Positions 1,243 to 34,267 of a stretch of 64,000 nt of DNA are shown piece after piece (the first letter of the stretch is position 1; each line of letters starts with the position of its first letter). This DNA is from Vicinamibacterales bacterium (GTDB lineage Bacteria > Acidobacteriota > Vicinamibacteria > Vicinamibacterales > JAMQPK01). The DNA lies in assembly GCA_963850295.1 (NCBI GenBank), contig CAWKKU010000013.1:249437-313436 (forward strand). Reading direction: 5' to 3'. Below the pieces are notes generated by a model. It made no database searches. It was given only the letters and a program-made list of their open reading frames with translations, and was not told where the DNA came from. A program made the translations under genes and the position numbers.

Positions 1243-2649
1243 CAGGAAAGATCTTACCCGGATTGAGGATGCCGTTTGGGATCGAACGCGCCCTTGATCC
1301 GCTTCATCAGGGCTATCTCTTCGCGAGAAAGCTCGAGACCGAGATACGGCGCCTTCGTAAAGCCGATGCCGTGCTCGCCGCTAATCGACCCTTCGAGCGC
1401 CACTACACCTTCGAACAACCGCTTCACCGCTCTCTTCCCCGTCTCTCTGCTCTTTGCTCTCTGCTCGTCAGTTTCGGTTCCAGCATCAGGGAGCATGATA
1501 TTGACGTGGATGTTGCCGTCGCCCGCATGTCCGAAACAGGCAATCGGCAGCCCGGTCTCCCTGCGGATGTCGTCTACCAGCGCGAACAGTTCCGGCACAC
1601 GTCCGCGCGGCACGACGACGTCGTTGTTCAGCTTGATGGTGGAGATCTTTCGCAGCGCCGGCGAGAGATCGCGGCGCAGTTGCCAGATGCCGTCTCTCTC
1701 CGCCTCTGAAGCCGCACGCTTCATGCTGAGCGCACCGGCCGCGCGGCAGGCCTCTTCGACAAGCAGGATCTCCGGTCCAACCGCTTCCGGGGAGCCATCG
1801 ACCTCGACGAGCAGCACGGCGCCGGTTCCGGGCGTCGCCATCCTGCGGCCGCTGTACGCCGCGAGCGCGTCGAGCGAATGTGCGTCGATGATTTCCACGG
1901 AGCCAGGGACGACGCGGCGATGGATGAGCTGCGTGACGGCTTCGCACGCCATGCCCGATGTCGGCAAACTCTGCGAGCAGCGTCGCGTGCGCCGGCGGTT
2001 TCGGGATGAGGCGCAGCGTGATCTCGGTGATGATGGCGAGCGTGCCTTCCGAGCCGACCAGCAACTGCGTCAGGTCATAACCGACGACGTTTTTCACGGC
2101 TTTCGAACCAGTGTGGATGATTTCCCCGGTCGGCAGCACGGCTTCGAGCGCCAGGACGTAGCGTTTTGTCGTTCCGTATTTGAAGGCGCGCGGCCCGCCG
2201 GCGCATTCGGCGACGTTTCCACCGAGCGCCGATTGCCTGAGGCTTGCGGGATCGGGCGGGTAGAACAGCCCGACCTTTTCGACCGCGTCCTGTAAATCGC
2301 CGGTGATGACGTTTGGCTGCACCCGCGCCAGCAGATTGAGTTGATCGATCTCGAGGATGCGGTTCATCCGCTCGAGCGACATCACGACTCCGCCGTGCGT
2401 CGGCACCGCCCCGCCCGTGTATCCGGTTCCGCCTCCGCGAACGACGAGCGGCACGCGCTCGGCGTTGCACAGCGCCGCGATCGCCGCGATCTCTTCCGTC
2501 GAGTGCGGCAGCACCACCAGATCGGCGGGAGCGCCCTGCTTCGTCCCGTCGGTGCCGTAGGTTTCGCGGGAGGAGATGTCCTGAAACACGAACGGGCCGC
2601 CGGCGATGGCGGCGACCCGTGACGTGAAACCGTGTGGAAGCGTCGCCAC
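1226..2649 (-). CDS. glcD: FAD-linked oxidase, glycolate oxidase GlcD-like; interrupted by two single-base frameshifts in this sequence
   Basis: Frame 1486..2649 has the FAD-binding region (VVRGGGTGYTGGAVP, ILEIDQLN). Frame 1254..1967 has GDGNIHVNI and GSISGEHGIG. The frames join if one base is removed near 1955. Removing one t of ttt 1275-1277 restores the canonical tail DPNGILNPGKIF and gives a stop at 1226-1228. Confidence 0.8.
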
Positions 2650-21399: not shown

Positions 21400-21427
21400 A
21401 GAGCTTAGAGCAAAGAGCTTAGAGCGA
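21400..21427. repeat. Heptamer array (AGAGCWW)x4, the reverse complement of the TYTGCTC family
   Basis: agagctt agagcaa agagctt agagcga. It encodes the last residues (..FALSSLL) and the TAA stop (complement of 21405-21407) of the JAMM gene. Confidence 0.88.
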
Positions 21428-21812
21428 AACACTCCGGGCGCCCTCCTTCGAATCGATACGCGCGCACCTCGTCGTCCAGCAGCGACACAATCACGTACAC
21501 GAACTCCGGACCGCTGTTTGCCTCGGCAATATCGGTCGGCGACGGCACTGGCTCGCTTGCCGGGTGTGAGTGATAGGCGCCGATGACGTCCAGTCCTTCC
21601 GCGCGCGCGGCTCTGATGGCTCTGAAGTGATCTTCGGGATGAACGAGGTATCGCGTCGCTTCCGGGGCGATGTTTCTTGCGCGCGCGCTCCGCGCGATGC
21701 GTCCGGCCGTGCCGAGCAACAGGCCGCAGCACTCGCGCGGCGCTTCGGTCCGCGCATGCGCCCGTAGCTCGGCAAGCACCTCGGCGGGTATATACAGGGG
21801 GTCTGACCCCAT
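21405..21812 (-). CDS. MPN/JAMM-domain metalloprotease (Mov34 family)
   Basis: 135-aa ORF with E..C.GLLLG and the JAMM motif YHSHPASEPVPSPTD. The ATG directly follows the tyrA TAA (TAAATG). Confidence 0.85.
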   Translation of the reverse strand: MGSDPLYIPAEVLAELRAHARTEAPRECCGLLLGTAGRIARSARARNIAPEATRYLVHPEDHFRAIRAARAEGLDVIGAYHSHPASEPVPSPTDIAEANSGPEFVYVIVSLLDDEVRAYRFEGGRPECFALSSLL

Positions 21813-22715
21813 TTATTCGCCGGCGACCAGCGTCTCGCGCCAGCGATTGGCGGATTCGAATACGTCCTCGATTGATGTTCCCGTTTTCAGATCGCCGCGC
21901 AATTCCTGCAGCACCGCAATGAGCGCGTCGAGCGCCGCACCAATCTCGTCGGCATTCGTCGCGCAGACTTCTTTCCAGATGTCGGCCGGGCTCGACGCGA
22001 GACGGGTCGTATCGTGCAAGCCGCGCCCGCTGAGTGACAGGCCTTCGCGTCCCGCGGCATGGCCGACGACGTGCATCAGAGCGCTGACGGTCAGTTGCGG
22101 AAGGTGGCTGATGAAGGCGAGCAACCGGTCGTGCGTCTCAGCCGAAAGTGTCTGGGGAACCGCGCCAAGGCCGGCGGCAAACGCGTTGAGCTTTTCCATC
22201 ACCGCGGGGTCGTGTGCGTGGTCCGGAGTAAACAGCCACGGCCGCCCCGAAAACATGTCGGGGCGCGCATGTTCGATGCCGCCGCGAGCGGCGCCGCCCA
22301 GAGGATGGCCGCCGACGAAGGTAAATCGGCTGGGGAGCAACGCGGCGGCAGCCATCATCTCGCGCTTCGTGCTTCCCGTATCGGTGATCACGGCGCTGCC
22401 CGCGATGTTGTCGGGAATCTCGCGCATCACTTCGAGATTCTGCTGAACCGGGGCAGCGAGGATTACGAGATCCGCCTCGGCCAGCACGACCGGATCGTCC
22501 GCCGCGACGTCCACGGCGTGCAACACCATCGCACGCTCCAGGACGTCTTTTCGATCGACCCCAATCACCAGCGCGGCCGGCCAAATCTCACGCGCCGCAA
22601 GGGCAATCGATCCGCCAATCAATCCCAACCCGACGATGCCGATGCGCTGGAAGATTGGCGGCTGCCCCGGATTTTTTTCCGGTCGCAGCATCGGTAGCTG
22701 TTTTCCCTCAGGCAC
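21813..22715 (-). CDS. tyrA: Prephenate dehydrogenase
   Basis: 300-aa ORF with the NAD-binding motif IGIVGLGLIGGSIALAA and a PDH core (GGHPLGG, SHLPQL). Confidence 0.88.
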   Translation of the reverse strand: MPEGKQLPMLRPEKNPGQPPIFQRIGIVGLGLIGGSIALAAREIWPAALVIGVDRKDVLERAMVLHAVDVAADDPVVLAEADLVILAAPVQQNLEVMREIPDNIAGSAVITDTGSTKREMMAAAALLPSRFTFVGGHPLGGAARGGIEHARPDMFSGRPWLFTPDHAHDPAVMEKLNAFAAGLGAVPQTLSAETHDRLLAFISHLPQLTVSALMHVVGHAAGREGLSLSGRGLHDTTRLASSPADIWKEVCATNADEIGAALDALIAVLQELRGDLKTGTSIEDVFESANRWRETLVAGE

Positions 22716-22726
22716 TCAAGCTCCGT

Positions 22727-22766
22727 AATCTTCCAATCTCCCAATCTCCCAATCCGCCAATTCCTA
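22727..22766. repeat. Octamer tandem array (AATCTCCC-like) x5 between DAHP synthase and tyrA
   Basis: aatcttcc aatctccc aatctccc aatccgcc aattccta. The last unit contains the DAHP synthase stop (complement of 22764-22766). On the coding strand it reads (GGGAGATT)n. Confidence 0.88.
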
Positions 22767-23810
22767 CCGCCCCCATCCCCGCTTCACCACCGGCTCCACA
22801 CAGATGCTCCGTCCAATTGCGGGAGCGATGATGCGGAGCTCGGCCATCACCCGATCGAACTGCGCCGGGAACATCGACTGCGCGCCGTCGCTCAATGCCT
22901 TGTCGGGGTTCGAATGGACCTCGACGATGATGCCGTCGGCCCCCGCGGCAACCGATGCTCTCGCCATCGCCGCAACCTTGTTCCGCTTGCCCGTCGCGTG
23001 GCTCGGGTCGGTGATGATCGGAAGGTGGCTCAGCTTCTTGATGACCGGGATCGCCGAGATGTCGAGGGTGTTGCGTGTGTAGCTCTCGAAGGTGCGGATG
23101 CCGCGCTCGCAGAGGATCACGTCGTTGTTGCCGCCGGCGAGCACATATTCGGCCGACAGCAGCCACTCTTCGATCGTCGCGGCGATGCCGCGCTTCAGCA
23201 GCACGGGCTTGCGCGTCCGGCCGAGCTCGCGGAGCAGCGTGAAGTTCTGCATGTTGCGCGCGCCCACCTGATAGATGTCGGAGTAGCGGCCGACGACGTC
23301 GATTTGGCTGACGTCCATGACCTCTGACACCAGCTTCAAGTTGTGCTGGTCCGCCGCCGCGCGGAGCATGCGCAGACCCTCTTCGCCGAGCCCCTGAAAG
23401 CTGTAGGGGGAGCTGCGCGGCTTGAACGCGCCGCCGCGAAGAACCTTGGCGCCGGCCTTTTTCACGGCGGCTGCCGTCGTGAAGACCTGCTCTTCGGTTT
23501 CAGCCGAGCACGGTCCCGCCATCACGATGACTTCGTCGCCGCCGATGCGGACGTCGTCGATGACGACGACGGTGCCCTCCGGTTTGAAGGTGCGGCTTGC
23601 CAGCTTGTACGGCTCGGTAATGCGAAGCACCTCGTGAACACCGTCCATGACTTCGATTAATGCGGGATCCACTTTGTGCGCTCCTACCACACCGAGCACG
23701 GTGCGATTGACGCCCGTCGAGCGGTGCACATCCATGCCTGCGTCCACCAGCGAGGCCACGACTTTTTCAATCTGCGCCTCTGTTGCGCGCTCTTCCATGA
23801 CCACTACCAT
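22764..23810 (-). CDS. aroF: 3-deoxy-7-phosphoheptulonate (DAHP) synthase, type I-beta, with an N-terminal ferredoxin-like regulatory domain
   Basis: 348-aa ORF. The N-terminal ~70 aa (MVVVMEERATEAQIEKVVASLVDAGMDVHRSTG) are followed by a KDSA/DAHPS-I-beta core (GAFKPRSSPYSFQGLG, DPSHATG). Confidence 0.88.
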   Translation of the reverse strand: MVVVMEERATEAQIEKVVASLVDAGMDVHRSTGVNRTVLGVVGAHKVDPALIEVMDGVHEVLRITEPYKLASRTFKPEGTVVVIDDVRIGGDEVIVMAGPCSAETEEQVFTTAAAVKKAGAKVLRGGAFKPRSSPYSFQGLGEEGLRMLRAAADQHNLKLVSEVMDVSQIDVVGRYSDIYQVGARNMQNFTLLRELGRTRKPVLLKRGIAATIEEWLLSAEYVLAGGNNDVILCERGIRTFESYTRNTLDISAIPVIKKLSHLPIITDPSHATGKRNKVAAMARASVAAGADGIIVEVHSNPDKALSDGAQSMFPAQFDRVMAELRIIAPAIGRSICVEPVVKRGWGR

Positions 23811-23812
23811 GA

Positions 23813-24148
23813 CTATCGATCCTCCACTTTGCCCGCCTGCCCCGCCGTAGCGTCTCCGCGGAGGGGGGCCGGGTTATGAGCTGTCGCGCGCTCGATGCGC
23901 CGCGCCTCGTCGATGATCCGTTCGAACACTCGTGCTATTGCGTCCCCTTCGAGGGGGCTGCCCGTCTGTTTGCCGTGCGTGCGTACGTGGTGCAGCACCT
24001 GCGCCTCCCGGTCGGGCTGGTACACCTCGAGGCCGAGACTCTGCTTCAACTTGCCGATCTCGAGCGCGCAGTGCGCGCGTTCGTTCAGCAGCTCCACCAG
24101 CCGTTCATCGAGCTGATCGATTCGCCGTCTGAGCTCGTCGATGTTCAT
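23813..24148 (-). CDS. Chorismate mutase (AroQ class)
   Basis: 111-aa [39 protein letters not shown]...YQPDREAQVL. Confidence 0.85.
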   Translation of the reverse strand: MNIDELRRRIDQLDERLVELLNERAHCALEIGKLKQSLGLEVYQPDREAQVLHHVRTHGKQTGSPLEGDAIARVFERIIDEARRIERATAHNPAPLRGDATAGQAGKVEDR

Positions 24149-24960
24149 CAGCGATGTGTACCACCGCCGGCGTCTCCTTTGAGCCAGCGAACATACGATT
24201 CTACTCTTTCAACCAGTTCCGGGCTCTTCCCGGCCTCGGCGATCACCCCCACGAGCCCGCTCCCGACGACCGCCGCGTCGGCGAACTCTCCGATCTTCCG
24301 CACGTGTTCCGGCGAGGAAATCCCGAACCCGAGCGCGACGGGCAACGCCGATGCCGCGCGTATTCGCGAGGCGAGCGCCTGCGCTCCGTCGGCCACCGTC
24401 GTACGCGTCCCCGTCACGCCGAGCCTGGAGATACCATACAAAAACCCGCGGCCGAGCCGGGCCGCTTCCTTCATCCGCGTGTCGGTGGTCGTCGGGCTCA
24501 ACAAGAAAATCATGTCGATGTCCCGTGCCGCCATCGCGTCGCGGAACGTTCCTGCTTCTTCGATCGGAAGATCCAGCACCAGCACCCCGTCGACGCCGGC
24601 ATCGCGGGCGCGATCGGCAAACGCGTCCACCCCAAGCCTGAGCACCGGATTCGCATATGTAAACAGCACGATCGGCGTCTTGATTTTCGGCCGCACGCGC
24701 TCGACGAGATCCAGCACGCTCCTCGCGGTGGTGCCCGCCGCCAGCGCGCGCTCCGTCGCGCGTTGAATGACGGGGCCATCCGCGAGCGGCTCGGAAAACG
24801 GAATACCCACTTCCATCACGTCGGCGCCGGCCCGCTCGAGGGCATACAGAATATCGGCCGATCGCGCGATGTCGGGGTCGCCCGCCGTCACATAGGTCAC
24901 GAGCCCTGTGCGCCGTTCCTCCCTCAGTTTCTGGAACGTCGCATCAATTCTAGATGGCAC
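24148..24960 (-). CDS. trpA: Tryptophan synthase alpha chain
   Basis: 270-aa ORF with GDPD...[17 protein letters not shown] and GFGIS motifs. Confidence 0.93.
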
Positions 24961-26173
24961 TGTCCGCCCCGTCCGTTGCCGAGACCGTATGAACGTCTTT
25001 GTCGCCCCGGCCAGACAAATTGATCAGAATCTGCGCGTCCGGCCCGAGCTCCTGCGCCAGCGTGCACGCGTATGCAACCGCGTGCGACGACTCCAGCGCG
25101 GGAATGATGCCTTCCGTGCGTGCCAGCTCGCGGAATGCCGCGAGCGCATCGTTGTCGCCGACCCATGAATATTCAGTGCGCCCCATGTCTTTGAGCCATG
25201 CGTGTTCCGGACCTACCGCGGCATAGTCGAGGCCGGCCGAGATTGAGTGCGTGAGTTCGATATTGCCGTTGTCGTCCTGCAGCACGTAGGTTCGCGTGCC
25301 CTGCAGCACGCCGGCGAGGCCGGTCGCAAATCTCGCGGCATGGCGGCCCGCCGAAAGCGCCTCGCCGCCTGCCTCGACGCCGATGAGACGGACGGTCTTG
25401 TCGGCGACGAACGCGTCGAAGATGCCCAGCGCGTTGCTTCCACCACCGACGCACGCCACAACAACATCGGGCAGCCGCCCGTTCATCTTGTGAAACTGTT
25501 CGCGCGCTTCACGGCCGATCACCGATTGGAATTCCCTGACCATCAGCGGATACGGATGGGGTCCAAGCACGGAGCCGAGCAGATAGTAGCTGTCGGTGAC
25601 ATTGGTAACCCAGTCGCGCATCGCCTCGTTGATCGCGTCTTTCAGAGTCCGGCTGCCGGCAGACACGCCGCGCACCGTCGCGCCGAGCAAACGCATCCGG
25701 ACGACGTTCAGCGCCTGCCGGGCCATGTCATCGGTGCCCATATATACGTGGCACTCCAGGCCGAGCAGCGCGCAGACGGTCGCCGTCGCCACACCGTGTT
25801 GACCGGCACCGGTCTCGGCGATGACGCGTTGTTTCCCCATGCGTCTCGCCAGCAGGGCCTGACCCAGCGCGTTGTTGATCTTGTGTGCGCCGGTGTGGGC
25901 CAGATCTTCGCGTTTGAGAAAGAGGCGCGCCGCCGGTTTGCGAAGCGACGCCGACAACCGCACCGCTTCATACACCGGTGTGGGTCTGCCGACATAATCT
26001 GCGAGCAGGCGATCGAATTCCTTCAGGAATGCCGGATCGGCGCGCGCCTCGAGGTACGCGGCCTGCAGTTGTTCGACCGGGGCCACGAGCGTCTCGGGCA
26101 CAAAGGTGCCGCCATACTCTCCGTAATAGCCGCGAGCGTTCGGATCTCGCCGGCCGAATCGCGTATCAGTCAT
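24950..26173 (-). CDS. trpB: Tryptophan synthase beta chain
   Basis: 407-aa ORF with [16 protein letters not shown] (PLP lysine) and GGGSNA. Confidence 0.95.
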
Positions 26174-26780
26174 TCAGCGCCTCGAAAAACATCCGCAATC
26201 GATTCGCATCTTTCACGCCTGGACTCGACTCGACGCCGGATGACACGTCGACGCCGTACGGCCGGACCGTACGCACCGCGAGTTTGATATTCGCCGGCGT
26301 CAGACCCCCGGCGAGAATCGTCGGCCGAACCGCCGCCATTTCGCGGGCTGCAGCCCAGTTGACGGTCTGGCCAGTGCCTCCGCGCCGCTCCGGATCGTGC
26401 GCGTCGGCGAGCAGCACGACATCCGGATCGAAACCTTCGAATGACACAGGTCCGCCGCTGGCCATGGCGATCGACTTGAAAATGCGGCGATTCAGCGTCC
26501 GGCAATATTCAGGTGTCTCCTGGCCGTGCAGTTGCGCCACGTCCAATCCTGCGTCGTCCATGATTCGTGTCACCTCGTCCGCCGGCTGATCGACGAACAC
26601 GCCAACCCTCTCGACGCCCGGCGGGAGATCGTTCGTGATCGCCCTGGCCGCGTCTGCTGTGATGGAGCGGGGACTGCCGGGCCAGAACACGAAGCCCAGC
26701 GCGCTGGCGCCCAGCTCGGCCGCCAGCCACGCGTCTTCCGGGCGTGTGATGCCGCAGATCTTCACGAAGAGACCCGTCAC
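26166..26780 (-). CDS. trpF: Phosphoribosylanthranilate isomerase
   Basis: 204-aa [15 protein letters not shown]...LHG...[11 protein letters not shown]. Confidence 0.9.
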
Positions 26781-27589
26781 GCGCTGGTGCCTTTCAGCAA
26801 ATCCGCCAGCGCCGCCCCTGGATCGTCGGTGGTCATGAAACGCTCGCCGACGAGAAACGCATCGTACCCTGCGCTCTTCAGTTCGCGCAGATCGGCGCTG
26901 GTCTTCAGGCCGCTCTCCGCCACCGCGACCACTTCGTCTGGGATCAGCTCCACCGCATCACGGCTCACCCGCGTATCCACGTCGAGCGTGCGGAGATTGC
27001 GGTTGTTGACGCCGATGATCGACGCCCCCGCTTCGAGCGCCACAGGCAACTCCTGCAGCTCGTGAATCTCCACGAGCACGTCCAGCCCCTGATCGGTCGC
27101 TGCACGATGCAGTTCCGCCAGCGAATCCGCGTTCAGCGCCGCGACGATCAACAGGATTGCGTCGGCGCCCGCCGCCCGCGCCTCGAGAATCTGGTAGCGA
27201 TCGACGATGAAATCCTTGCGAAGCAAGGGCACGGTCGTCGCCCGGCGGACTGCTTCGAGATGTTCGAGCGCGCCGTCGAAAAACGCCGGCTCGGTCAATA
27301 CCGAAATCGCGGCCGCCCCGGCCCGCTCGTAACCCGTCGCAATAGCCGCCGGATCGTAATCGGCCCTGAGCACGCCTCGAGAGGGCGAGCGCCGCTTGCA
27401 TTCCGCGATCACGCTGAGGCGATCGCTGCGAGTAAGGGCATTGGCAAATACGCCGGGTCTAGGCTCAACTCGCGCCGCCTGGCGCGCGACCTCCTCGAGC
27501 GTTTCGCGCGTACGCCGCGCGTCCACTGACCGTCGCGTGGACGCGACGATCGCCGCGAGCAGATCAGGCGTGTCGGCTGTCGAGGTCAC
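26777..27589 (-). CDS. trpC: Indole-3-glycerol phosphate synthase
   Basis: GTG start overlapping the trpD stop (GTGA). Contains VIAECKRRSPSRG, LRKDFIVDRYQI and IIGVNNRNL. The track ORF 26777..27925 is extended upstream artefactually. Confidence 0.9.
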   Translation of the reverse strand: MTSTADTPDLLAAIVASTRRSVDARRTRETLEEVARQAARVEPRPGVFANALTRSDRLSVIAECKRRSPSRGVLRADYDPAAIATGYERAGAAAISVLTEPAFFDGALEHLEAVRRATTVPLLRKDFIVDRYQILEARAAGADAILLIVAALNADSLAELHRAATDQGLDVLVEIHELQELPVALEAGASIIGVNNRNLRTLDVDTRVSRDAVELIPDEVVAVAESGLKTSADLRELKSAGYDAFLVGERFMTTDDPGAALADLLKGTSA

Positions 27590-28634
27590 GACGGCCCGCC
27601 TTCGCGCTTTGGCGCTTCGGCGAGGCAGGCCTTTGACGCGGCGATCATCGCGTCGAGTGTTTTGCCGGCGGCGCCCGAATCGATGGCCTGCGCGGCCGCC
27701 GCGATGCCGTCGCGCACGGACGCTGTTTTTCCGCCGACGAACAACGAGGCGCCGGCATTCAGCAGCACGACGTCGCGGCGCGGACCTCGCTCGCCGCCCA
27801 GAACGGCGCGGATAATCGCCGCATTGGCCACCGCGTCTCCACCTTGCAGATCCTTCCGTTCTGCCTTGGGCAGACCGAAATCCGACGGATGCACGTAGAA
27901 GGTGGAGACCGATCCATCGCGGCACTCCGAGACCTTCGTATGCCCCGTCGTGGACATCTCGTCGATGCCGTCGGCGCCGTGGACGACCCAGGCCCGTTCC
28001 GAGCCCAGCATCAGCAGCGCCCGCGCGATCAGTTCGGTGAGCTCGGAATGCGGGACGCCGACGAGCTGGTTCCGCGTGCCGACCGGATTCGTGAGCGGAC
28101 CTAACAAATTGAATGCCGTCCGCACCGCCAGCTCCTTCCGCACCGGCGCCGCGTATCGCATGGAGGGATGAAAGGTCGGCGCGAAGAAAAACGCGATGCC
28201 GACTTGGTCCAGAGAGCGCTCAACCGCCGCCGGTTCCGCGGCGATGTTGACGCCGAGCGCTTCGTACACATCCGCCGAGCCGCACTGGCTGGAGACTGAG
28301 CGGTTGCCATGTTTCGCCACGCGGAGTCCGGCGGCCGCGGCAACGAGTGCTGCCGCGGACGAAATATTGAAGGTCCCCGAACGGTCACCGCCCGTGCCGC
28401 ACGTATCGAACGCATCGTCATATCGCTTGGAGAGCTGCACGGCGTTGGCGCGCATCGTTCTGGCAAGACCGGCGATCTCGGCGGGCCGCTCCCCTTTCAT
28501 CGTGAGGCCCACGAGCAGCGCGCCAATCTGCGCCGGCGACGCCGAGCCGCTCATGATCGCGCTCATCGCCGCGGCCGACTCGTCGACGGTCAGATTTTCA
28601 CGGCGCATGAGTTTTTCGAGGAGGGACGAGATCG

Positions 28635-28638
<4 letters not shown>
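27586..28638 (-). CDS. trpD: Anthranilate phosphoribosyltransferase
   Basis: The last 350 aa of track ORF 27586..30156: MTISSLLEKLMRRENLT...DTCGTGGDRSGTFNISS...KHGNRSVSS. The ATG overlaps the trpG stop (ATGA). Confidence 0.92.
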
Positions 28639-29216
<578 letters not shown>

Positions 29217-29246
29217 ACGGTACGTCGTGCCCGGACTTAGCCGGAC

Positions 29247-30725
29247 CTATAAGCCCTCGTGCGCCAGCTCGAGCGCCCGAATCAACGCCCTGGCTTTGTC
29301 GCGCGTCTCCTCGTATTCGGCCTGCGGATTCGAGTCCGCCACGATGCCCGCGCCGGCCTGCACCATCGCCCGCCTGCCGGTGATCACGAGCGTGCGAATG
29401 GTGATGCAGAAATCCAGATTGCCGGCGAAGTCGAGATATCCGACCGCGCCCGCGTAGATTCCGCGCCGATCGGGCTCGAGCTCGGCGATGATCTCCATCG
29501 CTCTCACCTTCGGCGCGCCCGACACCGTCCCTGCCGGAAAACAGGCCACCAGCGCATCGAGCCGATCCTGGTCGGCCGCCAGCTTTCCTTCGACGATCGA
29601 CACGAGATGCATCACGTGGGAATATTTCTCGAGCCCCATGAACTGGGGCACCCTCACACTGCCGAACTCCGACACCCGCCCGAGATCGTTGCGTCCGAGA
29701 TCGACGAGCATCACGTGTTCGGAACGCTCCTTCTCGTTGCGCTTCAGCTCCTCGGCGAGGCGCGTGTCCTCTTCGTCGCTCTTGCCGCGCGGGCGCGTGC
29801 CGGCGATCGGGTGCGTCTGCGCCATGCCACCCTCGACACGCACCAGCATCTCCGGTGACGAGCCCACGATCGAGACCTTCCCCATGCGGAGAAAATACAT
29901 ATAGGGTGAAGGGTTCACGTGCCGGAGCGCGCGGTAGATGGTGAAGGGATCGGTCGAGATCTCGGCCTCGAAGCGTTGAGACAGGACGACCTGGTAGATG
30001 TCGCCCGCCGCGATGTACTCCTTGGCGGTCTTCACCATTTCGATGAAGCGCTCGCGTGGCACGTTCGACGTCACCTCGATGTTTCCGGCCGCGCCCGAGT
30101 GCGGATGTGACAGGTCCTTTCGCAGCTCGCGCTCGAGGAAACCGATCTTCGTGCACGCAAACTCGTAGAGGGCCTGGAGGTCGTCGTCCGGCGTGATGCG
30201 CGCGTTTGCGATGATCAGAATGCGGTGCTGCACGTGATCGAATGCCAGCACGGTGTCGAACATCATGAATCCGGCTTCATCGCCAAGCGCCGGATCCGGC
30301 TGGCCGTTGGACTGCAGCGTTACGGGCTCGAACCACGCCGCCGTGTCGTAGCCCAGGTAGCCCACCGCACCGCCGGTGAATCGCGGCAGCTCAGGAACGA
30401 ATGGCGAGCTGAAATCGGCCATCATGCCGCGAAGGATGTCGATGAACTTCTCCGCCCTTTCCGTGGTGACGCCGGCACTTTGCACGATGGTCTTGCCGTT
30501 GCGGGCGCGAAGCGTGACGAAGGGATCCTTGCCGAGAAACGAGTACCGCCCGACGTGTTCGCCTCCCTCGACGCTCTCGAGCAGGAAGGCGTAGTCGGAG
30601 TGTTCGGCGATGCGAAGAAACGCCGAGACCGGTGTCAGCAGGTCGGCCACGAGTTCCTTGACTACCGGCACGAACGTACTGCGTTGGGCGAGCTCGACAA
30701 AGGTCTCGAATGACGTCTGTTTCAT
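29247..30725 (-). CDS. trpE: Anthranilate synthase component I
   Basis: MKQTSFETFVELAQ...LLESVEGGE...GAVGYLDFAGNLDFCITIRT. The ATG overlaps the aroD/E stop (ATGA). The track ORF starts 20 codons upstream. Confidence 0.92.
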   Translation of the reverse strand: MKQTSFETFVELAQRSTFVPVVKELVADLLTPVSAFLRIAEHSDYAFLLESVEGGEHVGRYSFLGKDPFVTLRARNGKTIVQSAGVTTERAEKFIDILRGMMADFSSPFVPELPRFTGGAVGYLGYDTAAWFEPVTLQSNGQPDPALGDEAGFMMFDTVLAFDHVQHRILIIANARITPDDDLQALYEFACTKIGFLERELRKDLSHPHSGAAGNIEVTSNVPRERFIEMVKTAKEYIAAGDIYQVVLSQRFEAEISTDPFTIYRALRHVNPSPYMYFLRMGKVSIVGSSPEMLVRVEGGMAQTHPIAGTRPRGKSDEEDTRLAEELKRNEKERSEHVMLVDLGRNDLGRVSEFGSVRVPQFMGLEKYSHVMHLVSIVEGKLAADQDRLDALVACFPAGTVSGAPKVRAMEIIAELEPDRRGIYAGAVGYLDFAGNLDFCITIRTLVITGRRAMVQAGAGIVADSNPQAEYEETRDKARALIRALELAHEGL

Positions 30726-32155
30726 AAAGACCTGAGCGCGGCTTCCCGCATGAGTCCGGCCGGCGGGCGCCGGCCGGTCCACCACTCCGACTGGTCTTCT
30801 GCCTGCGCGACGAGCATGTCGAGGCCTCCGATGATGGCGCAGCCAGCGGCCGCCGCATCTCGCAGGAGGCGGGTTTCCATCGGGTTGTAAACAAGGTCGT
30901 AGACCAGCCGGCCGTCGAAGCGCCCTTCGAACGGCGTTTCATCGGCGTTCGGGTGCATCCCGACCGGAGTCGTGTTCACCAGCAGGTCCCAGCTATTCGG
31001 CGCGACGGGAAACGCGGCAGCGGCACCGCCGGCAAGCGCAGCGACCTCCCTGGCTCTTCCCCGGTTTCTGCCGTACACCGTCACAGCGCTGCCTGCAGAA
31101 CCCAGCGCCACGGCCACGGCCCGGGCAGCTCCGCCCGTTCCCAGAATCGCCGAGCGCGAGCGACGCAGTTCCATGCGGCCGACGAGCGGCGCCAGGAACC
31201 CGCTCACGTCTGTGTTCCGTGCGAGCCACCGCAGCCCGTCGCGGCTGTAGGTGTTCACCGCGCCAACATTGCGGCTTATGTCGTCCACGTCGTCCGCCCG
31301 CTGGAATAGATCCACCTTGTATGGAATGGTGATGCTGACACCTTGCACCGGCAGAGCTGTGGCAAACACCGTAAAGTCATCCGCGCTCGACGCGACAAGC
31401 GGGAGATACACGGCATCGATTCCGGCCGCACGGAACGCCGCGTTGTGCATTGCCGGAGAAACCGAGTGGGTCAGGGGCGAGCCGACAACGCCATAGATCG
31501 ACGTCCGGTCGGTAACGTCGCGGAATCTGAACTCGCCGAGCATGCGCGACACGTCGATCATTCCGGGAGCGTGACCATCGCCCGCGTACGCCCATCTGGA
31601 ATGAAAGTGAGCCGCGAGTATGCGGGTCGCGGCACCCACTGGCCCCATGCCGATTAGCACGGTGTTCGCGGCGCGCGGCAACTGCAGCAGGTGCAGGTTG
31701 TCCGACAGCGACCGTGCCATAACCGCAACCTTCACGACTTCCGCACCGGCGGCACGCATGGCCCGAACACGATCGATCAGATCCCCGGGCACGCCCTCGA
31801 AGTCGTGCGTCGACAGCACGATGCCCTTGCCGCCCGTACTCGCGATCAGCTCAGCGGCGAACGACGCCTTGAATTCCACATCCACGTATTCGGCGCCCTG
31901 CTGCACGGCGCACGCGAGAATCCTGCGCCGCTCCGCTTCGTCATCCTGAAACGCACCGCCTTCCCAGGCCGGCCGGCAGGTCACGACGACCGGGCTTTTG
32001 CGTCCAGCCAGTGCCGCCGTCACGTCCGGGTCGCTCACCGAATCCAGCCGCAGCTCGACCATATCGGCGCCCGCCGCCGACGCCGCGTCGCGACGGCGAC
32101 GGAGCTCCGCCGTCGTGGGGGCTGCGACAGTGATGACGAGTAAGGGTCTGGACAT
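30722..32155 (-). CDS. aroD/aroE: Bifunctional 3-dehydroquinate dehydratase (type I) / shikimate 5-dehydrogenase fusion
   Basis: 477-aa ORF. The N-terminal half is DHQase-I-like (MVELRLDSV...STHDFEG). The C-terminal half is AroE (VVGSPLTHSVSPAMHNAAF...GTGGAARAV..NTTPVGM). Confidence 0.85.
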   Translation of the reverse strand: MSRPLLVITVAAPTTAELRRRRDAASAAGADMVELRLDSVSDPDVTAALAGRKSPVVVTCRPAWEGGAFQDDEAERRRILACAVQQGAEYVDVEFKASFAAELIASTGGKGIVLSTHDFEGVPGDLIDRVRAMRAAGAEVVKVAVMARSLSDNLHLLQLPRAANTVLIGMGPVGAATRILAAHFHSRWAYAGDGHAPGMIDVSRMLGEFRFRDVTDRTSIYGVVGSPLTHSVSPAMHNAAFRAAGIDAVYLPLVASSADDFTVFATALPVQGVSITIPYKVDLFQRADDVDDISRNVGAVNTYSRDGLRWLARNTDVSGFLAPLVGRMELRRSRSAILGTGGAARAVAVALGSAGSAVTVYGRNRGRAREVAALAGGAAAAFPVAPNSWDLLVNTTPVGMHPNADETPFEGRFDGRLVYDLVYNPMETRLLRDAAAAGCAIIGGLDMLVAQAEDQSEWWTGRRPPAGLMREAALRSL

Positions 32156-32192
32156 AAAAAAAGCCTCTTCAACCGTTCCGGCTGAAGAGGCT
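32156..32192 (-). terminator. Strong intrinsic terminator / attenuator hairpin directly upstream of the aroD/E start codon
   Basis: The minus-strand RNA AGCCUCUUCAGCC-GGAAC-GGUUGAAGAGGCU gives a 13-bp stem with one G.U pair, followed by a run of U's ending at the ATG (32155). The 3' arm contains AAGAGG, the only SD-like sequence for aroD/E. Confidence 0.8.
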
Positions 32193-32217
32193 GTGTTGGC
32201 TCCCGATGACGTCGGTT

Positions 32218-32349
32218 CTAGGCCAAGGCAGTCGCCCCTTCAGTCTGGGCGTAATACCACCATCCAAAACCAAACGACACGCCGGCATGCGCAACCATCG
32301 CGATGACGATGGGACGCGGTGGGCGTTTGGTGGAAGAAGTGGCCTGCAT
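32218..32349 (-). CDS. Candidate aromatic-operon leader peptide (43 aa, ..FGFGWWYY..)
   Basis: atg cag gcc ... ttt ggt ttt gga tgg tgg tat tac gcc cag act gaa ggg gcg act gcc ttg gcc tag gives MQATSSTKRPPRPIVIAMVAHAGVSFGFGWWYYAQTEGATALA. It lies between a promoter-like site and the terminator. It could alternatively be a small membrane peptide. Confidence 0.5.
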   Translation of the reverse strand: MQATSSTKRPPRPIVIAMVAHAGVSFGFGWWYYAQTEGATALA

Positions 32350-32366
32350 GGCTGAAACTCTGGTGG

Positions 32367-32396
32367 AAGATAGCAGGAAGCCTTTGAAATTGTCAA
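32367..32396 (-). promoter_or_regulatory. Putative sigma-70 promoter for the leader and aromatic operon (TTGACA - 18 nt - TATCTT)
   Basis: On the minus strand, cTTGACAatttcaaaggcttcctgcTATCTTcc. The -35 box is the complement of 32391-32396 and the -10 box the complement of 32367-32372. Confidence 0.45.
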
Positions 32397-32443
32397 GACA
32401 TGTGCCACTATAACTGTAAGGATTTCCCAATAGATTCAACGAC

Positions 32444-34267
32444 ATGAAGAGACTTCTTTTCGCCCTCTTTGCGAGCATGGCGGTGCTGGTTGTGTCGCTT
32501 CCGGCGGCGCCGCCCTATTACCCCATCGACCAGGTCAAGCCCGGCATGATTGCCACCGGACACACCGTGTGGCAAGGCGACCGGATTGAAGAGTTCAAGG
32601 TCCATATCATCGGCGTGCTTCGCAACGTCATCGGACCGAAGCGCGATTTGATTCTGGCGAAGCTCGAAGGCGGCCCGCTCGCCCATACCGGCGTCATCGC
32701 CGGCATGAGCGGAAGCCCCGTCTACATCGACGGTCAACTCGTCGGCGCCGTGTCGTATTCGCTCGGGGCGTTTTCCAAGGAACCGATTGCGGGCATCACA
32801 CCGATCGGCGAGATGATCGACGCGGCCACGCTCGATACGCCCCGTCCCCCAATCGGCACGCGCGCGCGGCTGGAAACTCCTGTCACCCGCGAAAGCGTCG
32901 CTGCGGCGCTCCGCGCGTCGATGTCGTGGGCGCGCCCGTTCGCCGATCGCCCGTCCGACGTGCAGGTCTTCGGTGACGGCGTGCAGGGGCAGGTCGCCAC
33001 GATGCTCCGTCCAATCGCCACACCGCTGAATCTCGGCGGCTTCTCGCCCGAGATCGCGGAAATGCTCGGCTCGTCATTCCGTGACTATGGGTTCATGCCG
33101 ATTGCCGGCGCGGCGGCTGCCCAAAATCAGCAGAGTTCCACCGCGCCGCTTCGGCCTGGCTCCGCCGTCGGCGTCAACATCGTGAGCGGCGACTTCAACA
33201 TGGGCGCCACGGGCACGGTCACCGAAGTGATCGGGAACAAGGTCTATGCGTTCGGCCATCCGTTCTTCAATCTCGGGCCGGTCGCATTTCCGATGACCCA
33301 GGCGTACGTGCACACGCTACTCCCCAGCATGACCTCGTCCATGAAAATCGCCACGCTTGGCGATGTCATCGGAACGGTTCAGCAGGATCGCGCCACGACG
33401 ATCGCCGGCTTGACGGGTAACGGGCCCACGACGATTCCCGTGAAGATTGCGCTCGAGTCCGAGCGTGGATTCCGCAAGGAATTCGCCTTCAGAGTCGTCA
33501 ACGACCAGTTGTTCACGCCGCTCTTCACCTATGCGTCGATCCTCAGCACGCTCACCTCGTATGAGCGTGAAACCGGCGCGGCAACGTTCAGCATCAAAGG
33601 CACGATGAACGTGAAGTCGCACGGCGAAATCAAGATTGAAGATCTCTTCTCGGGCAACAGCGCGTCGCTGAACGCCGCGGGCTCCGTCATGGCGCCGCTC
33701 ACGTTCCTGCTCGACAACGACTTCGAGCCGATTCACATCGAATCGGTCGACCTGACGGTCCAGTCAACCGAGCAGCCGCGAACCGCCACGATCGAGCGCG
33801 TGTGGCTCGACGGCGCCCGCGCCCGTGCGGGCCGCGTCGTGCCGCTGAAAGTGCTGATGCGGACCTATCGCGGCGAAGAGGTCGTCAGCACCGTGCCGCT
33901 CGAGATCCCCGCGAACGCAACGGGCGCGTTGTCCGTGATGGTGTCCGACGGCGCCCGCCTTGCTCAATGGGAGCGGCGCGAAGTGCGCCAGCCCACCGAG
34001 CCGCGCAGCGTGCCGCAGCTGATGCGGGCGCTCAATACCACCCGTAAGAACAACCGCCTCTACGTGCGGCTGCTGGCGTCGGATTCCGGCGCCGTGGTTC
34101 GCGGCGAGCCGTTGTCGTCGCTGCCGCCTTCGGTGCTGGGCGTGCTCGAAGCCGATCGCAGCGCCGGCGATTTCATTCCGCTTCGCAACGCGACCCTGGG
34201 CGAATGGAATCTTCCGACCGAGTTTGCCGTCGTCGGCGCGCGGATGCTGACGATCAACATCGAGTAA
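32444..34267 (+). CDS. Secreted peptidase S55 (SpoIVB-like) domain protein
   Basis: 607-aa ORF with signal peptide MKRLLFALFASMAVLVVSLPAAP and the S55 core IIGVL...TGVIAGMSGSPVYIDGQLVGAVSYS. Confidence 0.75.
   Translation: MKRLLFALFASMAVLVVSLPAAPPYYPIDQVKPGMIATGHTVWQGDRIEEFKVHIIGVLRNVIGPKRDLILAKLEGGPLAHTGVIAGMSGSPVYIDGQLVGAVSYSLGAFSKEPIAGITPIGEMIDAATLDTPRPPIGTRARLETPVTRESVAAALRASMSWARPFADRPSDVQVFGDGVQGQVATMLRPIATPLNLGGFSPEIAEMLGSSFRDYGFMPIAGAAAAQNQQSSTAPLRPGSAVGVNIVSGDFNMGATGTVTEVIGNKVYAFGHPFFNLGPVAFPMTQAYVHTLLPSMTSSMKIATLGDVIGTVQQDRATTIAGLTGNGPTTIPVKIALESERGFRKEFAFRVVNDQLFTPLFTYASILSTLTSYERETGAATFSIKGTMNVKSHGEIKIEDLFSGNSASLNAAGSVMAPLTFLLDNDFEPIHIESVDLTVQSTEQPRTATIERVWLDGARARAGRVVPLKVLMRTYRGEEVVSTVPLEIPANATGALSVMVSDGARLAQWERREVRQPTEPRSVPQLMRALNTTRKNNRLYVRLLASDSGAVVRGEPLSSLPPSVLGVLEADRSAGDFIPLRNATLGEWNLPTEFAVVGARMLTINIE

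Follow-up and report, generated by a model that had tools for sequence, protein, structure and literature searches.

A 64,000-nucleotide (nt) stretch of DNA from a Vicinamibacterales bacterium (contig CAWKKU010000013.1, positions 249,437 to 313,436; hereafter the window, whose own numbering is used below) carries on its minus strand, directly ahead of an aromatic amino-acid supraoperon, what is very probably a ribosome-mediated (leader-peptide) transcription attenuator coupling aroDE-trp-CM-DAHPS-tyrA (CM, chorismate mutase; DAHPS, DAHP synthase) to charged aromatic tRNAs. The evidence that bears directly on this assignment consists of the elements read in the sequence and the degree to which they are conserved, covariation in both alternative helices, and the in-frame spacing between regulatory codons and antiterminator. 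The mechanism is classical leader-peptide attenuation, and both mixed-codon sensors and aro-trp-tyr supraoperons are already known; what is new is an RNA and peptide family with no match in Rfam or NCBIfam, the phylum in which it occurs, and the use of a single 5' sensor for a whole supraoperon. The parts of the element are as follows.

32367 to 32396, minus strand: promoter-like site, with the -35 hexamer TTGACA (32396-32391), an 18-nt spacer and the TG-extended -10 hexamer TATCTT (32372-32367).
32218 to 32349, minus strand: leader-peptide open reading frame (ORF) of 43 codons plus TAG, with its ATG at 32349, its stop at 32220-32218 and the product MQATSSTKRPPRPIVIAMVAHAGVSFGFGWWYYAQTEGATALA.
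32251 to 32274, minus strand: regulatory codon cluster F-G-F-G-W-W-Y-Y (UUU GGU UUU GGA UGG UGG UAU UAC), the proposed sites of ribosome stalling.
32234 to 32243, minus strand: antiterminator 5' arm, termed A, CUGAAGGGGC, which lies within the ORF, encodes T-E-G-A and pairs with 32191-32182.
32196 to 32226, minus strand: P2, the inner hairpin of the antiterminator domain in minimum-free-energy folds, UUGGC (32226-32222) with GCCAA (32200-32196).
32162 to 32192, minus strand: intrinsic terminator hairpin, with a 5' arm (T5') at 32192-32179, a GAA loop at 32178-32176 and a 3' arm (T3') at 32175-32162.
32156 to 32162, minus strand: U7 tract, adjoining the aroD/E start codon (32155-32153).

Much of this layout had been proposed in a first-pass annotation made from the letters alone. 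Its promoter-like site was retrieved at the same place by a promoter scan of the region, which found two such sites versus 0.1 expected from shuffles; the site matches the consensus at 10 of 12 positions with TG preceding the -10 hexamer, and TTGACA-18-TGnTATCGT/TATCTT is kept in 16 relatives of the window's clade. Transcription is presumed to start at this conserved promoter. The annotated 43-codon ORF agrees with the minus-strand reading as well, and the cluster at 32274..32251 holds every F, W and Y residue of the 43-aa peptide; the mechanical ORF list places these codons within an 86-codon ORF starting at 32478, a start that lies upstream of the promoter. The leader ATG falls 17 nt past the -10 hexamer in the window and 9 nt past it in most clade members (L002-L015), and no Shine-Dalgarno (SD) sequence precedes it; from this spacing the leader mRNA is probably leaderless or near-leaderless. 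The ten contiguous pairs, one of them G.U, that had been drawn between A (CUGAAGGGGC, 32243-32234) and the terminator 5' arm were recovered at the same coordinates, the partner being GCCUCUUCAG (32191-32182). The terminator itself had been described as a 13-bp stem with a U run that ends at the aroD/E ATG; the U run stands as described, while the terminator scan gives the stem 14 pairs, 8 of them G-C. The first U of the tract (32162) also pairs with A32192 and closes the stem, a base common to hairpin and tract. A U-run follows the stem in all loci of the alignment described below (A2), and the upstream gene (32444-34267, plus strand) is divergent, therefore the terminator is not the end of any gene.

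The nearest aroD/E homologues are labelled Vicinamibacterales, an order placed in class Vicinamibacteria of Acidobacteriota. Orthologous loci were sought by scanning one genome per species with an aroD/E alignment, which gave 80 loci of 53-93% identity from Vicinamibacterales metagenome-assembled genomes (MAGs); the choice was made by aroDE protein homology alone and was blind to the leader. Of these, 79 are usable (L051 comes without upstream sequence), and helix statistics refer to a 77-sequence alignment, A2. The same layout, a Trp-rich short ORF and then the same terminator, is present in 78 of the 79, down to 53% aroDE identity, with the ORF ending 60-130 nt upstream of aroD/E in those 78. 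The first-pass annotation had staked its proposal on finding the short ORF, its aromatic codons and covarying alternative helices in related genomes, and had named their lack of conservation as the outcome that would speak against it; the relatives retain them, with 95.6-96.5% of alignment cells paired in the two helices. The same layout is also seen in 120 metagenome loci, which were chosen by a pattern fixing A, T5' and T3' and were left out of covariation for those helices, serving for leader composition, spacing, gene context and P2/1:2' only.

Across these loci the codon cluster takes the forms FGFGWWYY, AAWWYW, AWRWYW, WWWYW and others. N-terminal parts of the peptide are unrelated between clades and its length varies; what hardly varies in A2 is the aromatic codons, the stretch that encodes ..(T/S)E(E/G)A.. 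and the terminator, and the columns of UGGUGGUAU are at least 90% conserved there. Many distant leaders with otherwise unrelated N-termini share CGUGUGC, a Val-Cys pair 4-5 codons before the Trp cluster, which is found in the WWYW and WRWYW clades (e.g. L030, L045, L055, L058; A2 columns 19-26) and may pair with GCGCG after the stop. L077 lacks the element, another ORF reaching up to aroDE; in L043 and L057 the leader and terminator are set back from aroDE by about 205 nt and 80 nt, respectively, of unrelated sequence. Eight loci (L007, L016, L029, L030, L040, L052, L060 and L072) have a Vicinamibacterales-type aroDE and the same leader under Bifidobacterium, Bifidobacteriaceae or Betaproteobacteria labels; the labels of these MAG records look wrong.

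Both alternative helices gain support from compensatory changes. Over the 77 loci the terminator helix is paired in 96.5% of cells, against 30-60% in slid controls, and 6 of its pairs show double changes; the A:T5' antiterminator is paired in 95.6% (slid controls 37-55%), with double changes at 4 pairs and an 8-bp core that is almost never broken. Compensation extends over three strands in L064 and L067 (A CUGGAGAGGC, T5' GCCUCUCCAG, T3' UUGGAGAGGC), and in L065 a U-to-C change in the 5' arm is matched in both partners (T5' GCCCCUUCAG, T3' CUGAAGGGGC); L043 and L057 have a remodelled trio of strands that retains its complementarity. RNAalifold on the 77-sequence alignment returned the terminator only; the antiterminator, P2 and the 1:2' helix were tested as named structures. 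Inside P2 lie the stop codon and a small hairpin, CCGA/UCGG (32215-32203); in 73 of 77 loci a hairpin of 3 bp or more surrounds the stop, and the P2-equivalent helix of the major clade is 80% paired with 15 double-change cells, from which P2 is taken with moderate confidence to be a real helix. The A sequence is retained where the ORF ends before A (L021) or inside it (L085, L098, L099), and therefore the 'TEEA' tail is conserved at the RNA level and not at the peptide level. As a separate observation, A and the terminator 3' arm (32234-32243 and 32164-32170, minus strand) have an SD-like core GAAG(A/G)GG in common, and the terminator 5' arm GCCUCUUC resembles an anti-SD sequence.

For sensor composition and spacing, 185 distinct leaders were pooled from genomes and metagenomes. 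At least two Trp codons are present in 178 of the 185 and at least one Tyr codon in 177, with any Phe codon in 56; the commonest clusters are WWYW (37 leaders), WRWYW (27) and FGFGWWYY (13). Judged by codon content, the sensor is mainly one for Trp plus Tyr, with W3Y1 as the family norm, and the balanced F2W2Y2 version is confined to the clade of the window; the earlier remark that the regulatory codons cover all three aromatic amino acids thus describes the window and its clade and not the family norm. The same residues are scarce in the operon itself, where Trp, Tyr and Phe make up 0.6%, 1.8% and 3.3% of codons. The window leader also uses codons that are minor in the operon (TTT 29%, GGT 12%, GGA 15% and ACT 5% of their synonymous sets), which may reflect RNA pairing or slow decoding.

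The distance between sensor and antiterminator is nearly fixed: in 136 of 185 leaders, the window included, A starts at a distance of 10 nt, counted from the first base of the final aromatic codon, and 43 of the remaining 49 deviate from 10 nt by multiples of three, a pattern that points to translation of the stretch between the codons and A. The first base of the stop lies 23 nt after the start of A in 156 leaders and no further in 182, which places the stop at most 13 nt beyond A in those 182, with some stops closer or even inside A; overall the stop falls anywhere from -3 to +32, counting from where A starts.

For the 226-nt leader the predicted folding energy, with the terminator formed, is -86 kcal/mol, compared with -72 +/- 4.4 for shuffles (z = -3.2). 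The comparison of fold energies that the first-pass annotation had suggested gives the window's terminator -23.7 kcal/mol and, for complete transcripts at equilibrium, a terminator probability of 0.97; mean energies are -21.5 kcal/mol for the terminator and -24.7 kcal/mol for the antiterminator domain, which are thus predicted to be about equally stable. Ribosome positions were modeled by masked folding, in which transcripts were cut before the 3' arm, the ribosome footprint was masked and the probability of the antiterminator core was read out. A ribosome stalled on the first aromatic codon gives 0.94 and one on the last gives 0.89; the value falls to 0.03 with the ribosome three codons further, and is 0.17 at the stop and 0.60 without a ribosome. 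In these models the geometry suits attenuation: a stalled ribosome would permit the antiterminator and an advanced ribosome would prevent it.

In the proposed sequence of events, for which ribosome positions and footprints, kinetic order, the amino-acid response and SD use are inferred, the leader would be transcribed from the conserved promoter and its 43 codons translated at once. Under starvation, scarce Trp-, Tyr- or (in this clade) Phe-tRNA would stall the ribosome at 32274-32251; with the last aromatic codon in the ribosomal A site, it would protect about 12 nt downstream, covering only the two weakly conserved outer pairs of A, with its leading edge just short of the 8-nt core. A, stacked on P2, would then capture the emerging terminator 5' arm; with the terminator blocked, RNA polymerase would read into aroD/E, and the SD-like 3' arm would be left single-stranded. 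In the replete state the ribosome would cross A to the stop 13 nt beyond, melt P2 and occlude the 3' end of A; the 5' arm would pair with the 3' arm and transcription would end at U7, right before the ATG.

Several findings weigh against this reading. The covariation comes from few events (8 to 19 cells), owing to the high sequence conservation, and the translation start is presumed at an ORF with no SD of its own. The value at the stop depends on the footprint chosen, being 0.59, 0.17 or 0.01 with the 5' edge at stop-12, stop-15 or stop-18; from this fragility it follows that the replete state needs a ribosome on or just past A as the 5' arm emerges, together with a dwell at the stop. When 77 loci are folded with no ribosome, 46 of them are predicted to form the antiterminator, the window among them (0.98), so in these folds there is no robust RNA-only default to termination, unlike E. 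coli trpL. A candidate protector helix, between the UGGUGG codons and a CCACC after the stop, has moderate support: 70-72% of cells are paired, against 35-55% in slid controls, and this pairing would compete with P2 and cross A:T5'. Such a helix is typical of trpL, although leader-peptide attenuators as a class do not require it. No significantly stable pause or protector hairpin was found in segments that reach from 75 nt upstream to the end of the aromatic codons (mean z = -0.33, with 8% below -2). The response to amino-acid supply, too, is a prediction from the sequence.

A trpL-like 1:2 hairpin is consequently not claimed, since the upstream segments do not exceed shuffles in stability. 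The window's aromatic-codon region can pair with the post-stop segment (-20.1 kcal/mol) and better with upstream leader codons (-28.2 kcal/mol); the predicted untranslated fold contains an 8-bp long-range helix in which ACCAAACG (32331-32324) is the exact complement of CGUUUGGU (32276-32269). The two strands are the S-T-K-R and S-F-G codons, respectively; the ACCAAACG:CGUUUGGU helix may explain the conservation of STKR and SFGFG in the window's clade, and a pause hairpin is a possible role for it. As modeled, the attenuator has three helices, A:T5' and P2 on one side and T5':T3' on the other, and a protector that is optional.

Another form of attenuation is judged unlikely. Here the attenuator, class-wide and without an effective RNA protector, would be ON by default, and termination would depend wholly on a closely coupled ribosome; anti-SD pairing with A would act as an anti-antiterminator in place of a 1:2 helix. 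A (GAAGRGG), identical in sequence to the SD-like 3' arm, may be bound by the anti-SD of a ribosome that is translating or terminating; during the last codons the P site of that ribosome would stand 5-11 nt downstream of A, an SD-like distance. The near-invariant attenuated RNA (about 200 nt, a promoter-based estimate) or the peptide could in addition act in trans like rnTrpL/peTrpL.

Control at the level of translation only, with the hairpin hiding the aroD/E SD, leader translation opening it and termination going unregulated, is considered very unlikely. It draws on the SD-like AAGAGG (32169-32164) in the terminator 3' arm, which had been noted at first pass as the only such motif and is indeed the sole purine-rich stretch in the 22 nt before the aroD/E ATG, its GAGG core lying 8 nt from that codon; terminator formation would presumably mask it. 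For the 3' arm to serve as an SD the start must adjoin the U-run, which is so in the 36 of 77 loci with a start no more than 10 nt from the stem; stem and U-run are kept also in the other 41, with aroDE starting 11 to 211 nt downstream, and a 14-bp G+C-rich stem directly before U7 is a canonical intrinsic terminator. A role in SD masking is therefore not the conserved function of the 3' arm, and is at most an added layer in the window's clade.

The ORF could instead be a gene in its own right, equipped with a separate promoter and terminator and encoding a small peptide that may insert into the membrane; its position would then be unrelated to aromatic-codon regulation. The window peptide has a basic N-terminus followed by a hydrophobic, transmembrane-like aromatic stretch PIVIAMVAHAGVSFGFGWWYYA, its C-terminal ..TE(E/G)A(S/T)ALA is conserved across clades at the peptide level, and trans-acting leader peptides such as peTrpL are known (PMC7298713). 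However, the N-terminal two thirds, hydrophobic stretch included, are unconserved outside the window's clade; the conserved tail coincides with A and P2, and the nucleotides of A are kept outside the ORF or in another frame in the loci named above. The variable position of the stop relative to A and the lack of any matching NCBIfam family count against it too, as does the U-run at the aroD/E ATG, which leaves no room for a second promoter, therefore the operon is expressed only via read-through. A conserved membrane peptide acting independently of the codons, the alternative raised in the first-pass annotation, is thus disfavored and appears highly improbable.

A similarly slight chance is given to a trans factor or ligand setting the switch, such as a TRAP-like protein, an uncharged tRNA on a T-box or a metabolite riboswitch, with the ORF incidental. 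In Firmicutes, control of aromatic and trp operons is exerted through TRAP and T-boxes (PMC4027176), and the leader RNA is unusually conserved in sequence. Against this, an Rfam scan of 31000-33500 at E<=10 returned neither T-box nor riboswitch, and a TRAP-type array of 9-11 (G/U)AG repeats, 2-3 nt apart and overlapping the antiterminator, is absent from the 215-nt leader, where just 4 GAG/UAG triplets occur and the gaps between them are 140, 18 and 35 nt. The aromatic codons are moreover the most conserved part of the ORF, and indels between codons and A in multiples of three (43 of 49 variants) are unexpected in an untranslated segment. A chance short ORF and chance complementarity beside an ordinary terminator, each weak evidence in a single sequence, can be dismissed in view of the recurrence in 78 of 79 blind-chosen loci and in the metagenome loci, the conserved spacing and the compensatory changes.

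The leader-peptide attenuator favored here falls outside every catalogued Rfam RNA family: cmscan of 31000-33500 against the Rfam 15 leader families (Trp_leader, Phe_leader and others) gave at E<=10 only four unrelated chance matches far below gathering scores, and no NCBIfam model matched four of the leader peptides even at E<=10. A covariance model of the element (R1) finds no second copy in the window, only a palindromic reverse match at 30 bits. In L099, a metagenome locus, the same attenuator stands before CM-DAHPS instead of aroDE (1437-1557, plus strand; R1 score 65.9 bits), its leader ending FGYAFTYWGWFTTH-UGA with the UGA stop inside A; this copy points, for some of the relatives, either to a split operon or to an aromatic regulon of small size.

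The closest functional model is E. coli trpL (Rfam Trp_leader, the Yanofsky model), with which the element shares a short leader ORF with adjacent Trp codons, a terminator before the first structural gene, an antiterminator that uses the terminator 5' arm under the control of ribosome position, and a similar distance of about 10-19 nt between regulatory codons and antiterminator arm. The two have no sequence or covariance-model similarity, and differ in that the sensor here reads W and Y (and F in this clade), the antiterminator arm lies within the ORF with the stop 13 nt after it, the 1:2-type protector or pause helix has moderate support, the predicted untranslated state is mostly antiterminated, and the operon also has shikimate-pathway, CM, DAHPS and tyrA genes. 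The first-pass description of a classical layout, in which a stalled ribosome selects between helices, is accordingly borne out for the alternative helices and the spacing, whereas the element is not a clear four-segment copy of trpL, with A inside the ORF.

Multivalent attenuators are known from E. coli, where thr (Thr and Ile) and ilvGMEDA (Ile, Val and Leu) have interspersed codons and starvation for any one amino acid relieves termination. These resemble the present leader in sensing several amino acids at once; pheL of E. coli, in which runs of Phe codons are the sensor (PMC3082878), has a comparable aromatic run, and all three differ from it in amino acids and lineage, with unrelated RNA sequences. 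Mixed aromatic codons ahead of common-pathway genes have a precedent in the C. glutamicum aroR leader before aroF, which has Phe-Tyr-Phe codons and attenuates an operon with DAHP synthase (Neshat et al. 2014, in the summary given in PMC11802643); the resemblance is functional only. Unlike the element described here, aroR is actinobacterial and without Trp codons, and in C. glutamicum the trp operon is served by a trpL of its own, where one leader here covers the common, Trp and Tyr branches.

In the aro supraoperon of B. subtilis the trp genes sit among aroF, aroB, aroH ... tyrA and aroE. It is alike in placing trp genes amid common-pathway and Tyr-branch genes and in making a terminator/antiterminator choice in a leader; there, however, TRAP acts on 11 (G/U)AG repeats and the attenuator lies inside the supraoperon before trpE, while here a ribosome-sensed attenuator without a triplet array stands at the very 5' end. 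Control of B. subtilis trpEDCFBA by TRAP is documented (PMC4027176). Sinorhizobium meliloti offers a Trp leader-peptide attenuator from a soil bacterium, differing in operon and sequence, in which trpL yields the small RNA rnTrpL and the peptide peTrpL, both with trans functions (PMC6614838, PMC7298713); by analogy, and given the very high sequence conservation, a trans role of the attenuated RNA or peptide is conceivable here. A 2010 study predicted attenuators in Acidobacteria with almost no assigned function, leader peptides then being known only from Proteobacteria, Actinobacteria and that study's Firmicutes cases (PMC2965389); in PMC4833913, Acidobacteria appear only in a statistic on leader-gene distances. 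No description of an attenuator or leader peptide in Acidobacteria or Vicinamibacteria was found in the literature searched, nor anything pertinent on supraoperons with a leader peptide.

The present element would extend leader-peptide attenuation to Acidobacteriota (class Vicinamibacteria), an abundant and hard-to-culture soil lineage. Attenuation needs a ribosome close behind RNA polymerase, therefore a conserved attenuator is indirect evidence of transcription-translation coupling in the phylum. One sensor, mostly for Trp and Tyr and in this clade for Trp, Tyr and Phe equally, would span the common pathway and the Trp and Tyr branches. For annotation, such a short ORF should not be called a hypothetical protein, and a new Rfam family could start from the alignments and covariance model.

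The genes placed under this control, assigned by Pfam, are listed below.

32155 to 30722, minus strand: aroD/E fusion, type I dehydroquinase / shikimate dehydrogenase, a 477-aa ORF.
30785 to 29247, minus strand: trpE.
29216 to 28635, minus strand: trpG.
About 28668 to 27586, minus strand: trpD.
Ending at 26777, minus strand: trpC.
26780 to 26166, minus strand: trpF.
26173 to 24950, minus strand: trpB.
24960 to 24148, minus strand: trpA.
24148 to 23813, minus strand: chorismate mutase (type II).
23810 to 22764, minus strand: DAHP synthase with a ferredoxin-like domain.
22715 to 21813, minus strand: prephenate dehydrogenase, tyrA.
21812 to 21405, minus strand: Prok-JAB/MPN-domain ORF of 135 aa, starting directly after the tyrA stop.

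The regulated region aroDE-trpEGDCFBA-CM-DAHPS-tyrA comprises eleven genes and, with the JAB-domain ORF, which looks like the last gene of the aromatic operon, spans 21405..32155 on the minus strand; tight spacing and overlaps suggest that the genes form one transcript. As far as its Pfam assignments indicate, the operon provides for the common pathway and for the Trp and Tyr branches, together with the shared CM step, in keeping with the first-pass description for the common-pathway, Trp and Tyr enzymes; that description had also included the Phe branch, of which CM is present, while prephenate dehydratase is absent from the operon and no Phe-specific enzyme is found among its assigned genes. 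Distant clades with W3Y1 leaders (L135, L142, L166) keep this gene order as far as tyrA.

The divergent gene has a weak SpoIVB/S55 peptidase match and is syntenic with the leader in nearly all loci (L081-L200), the two promoters standing back to back (intergenic region 32350-32443). In distant clades a conserved block GAAGTGCTTRCTGGTCAAGGAGAAATGGGC reads TTGACC-18-TATAAC on the opposite strand (seen in L098), and is probably the promoter of the divergent gene.

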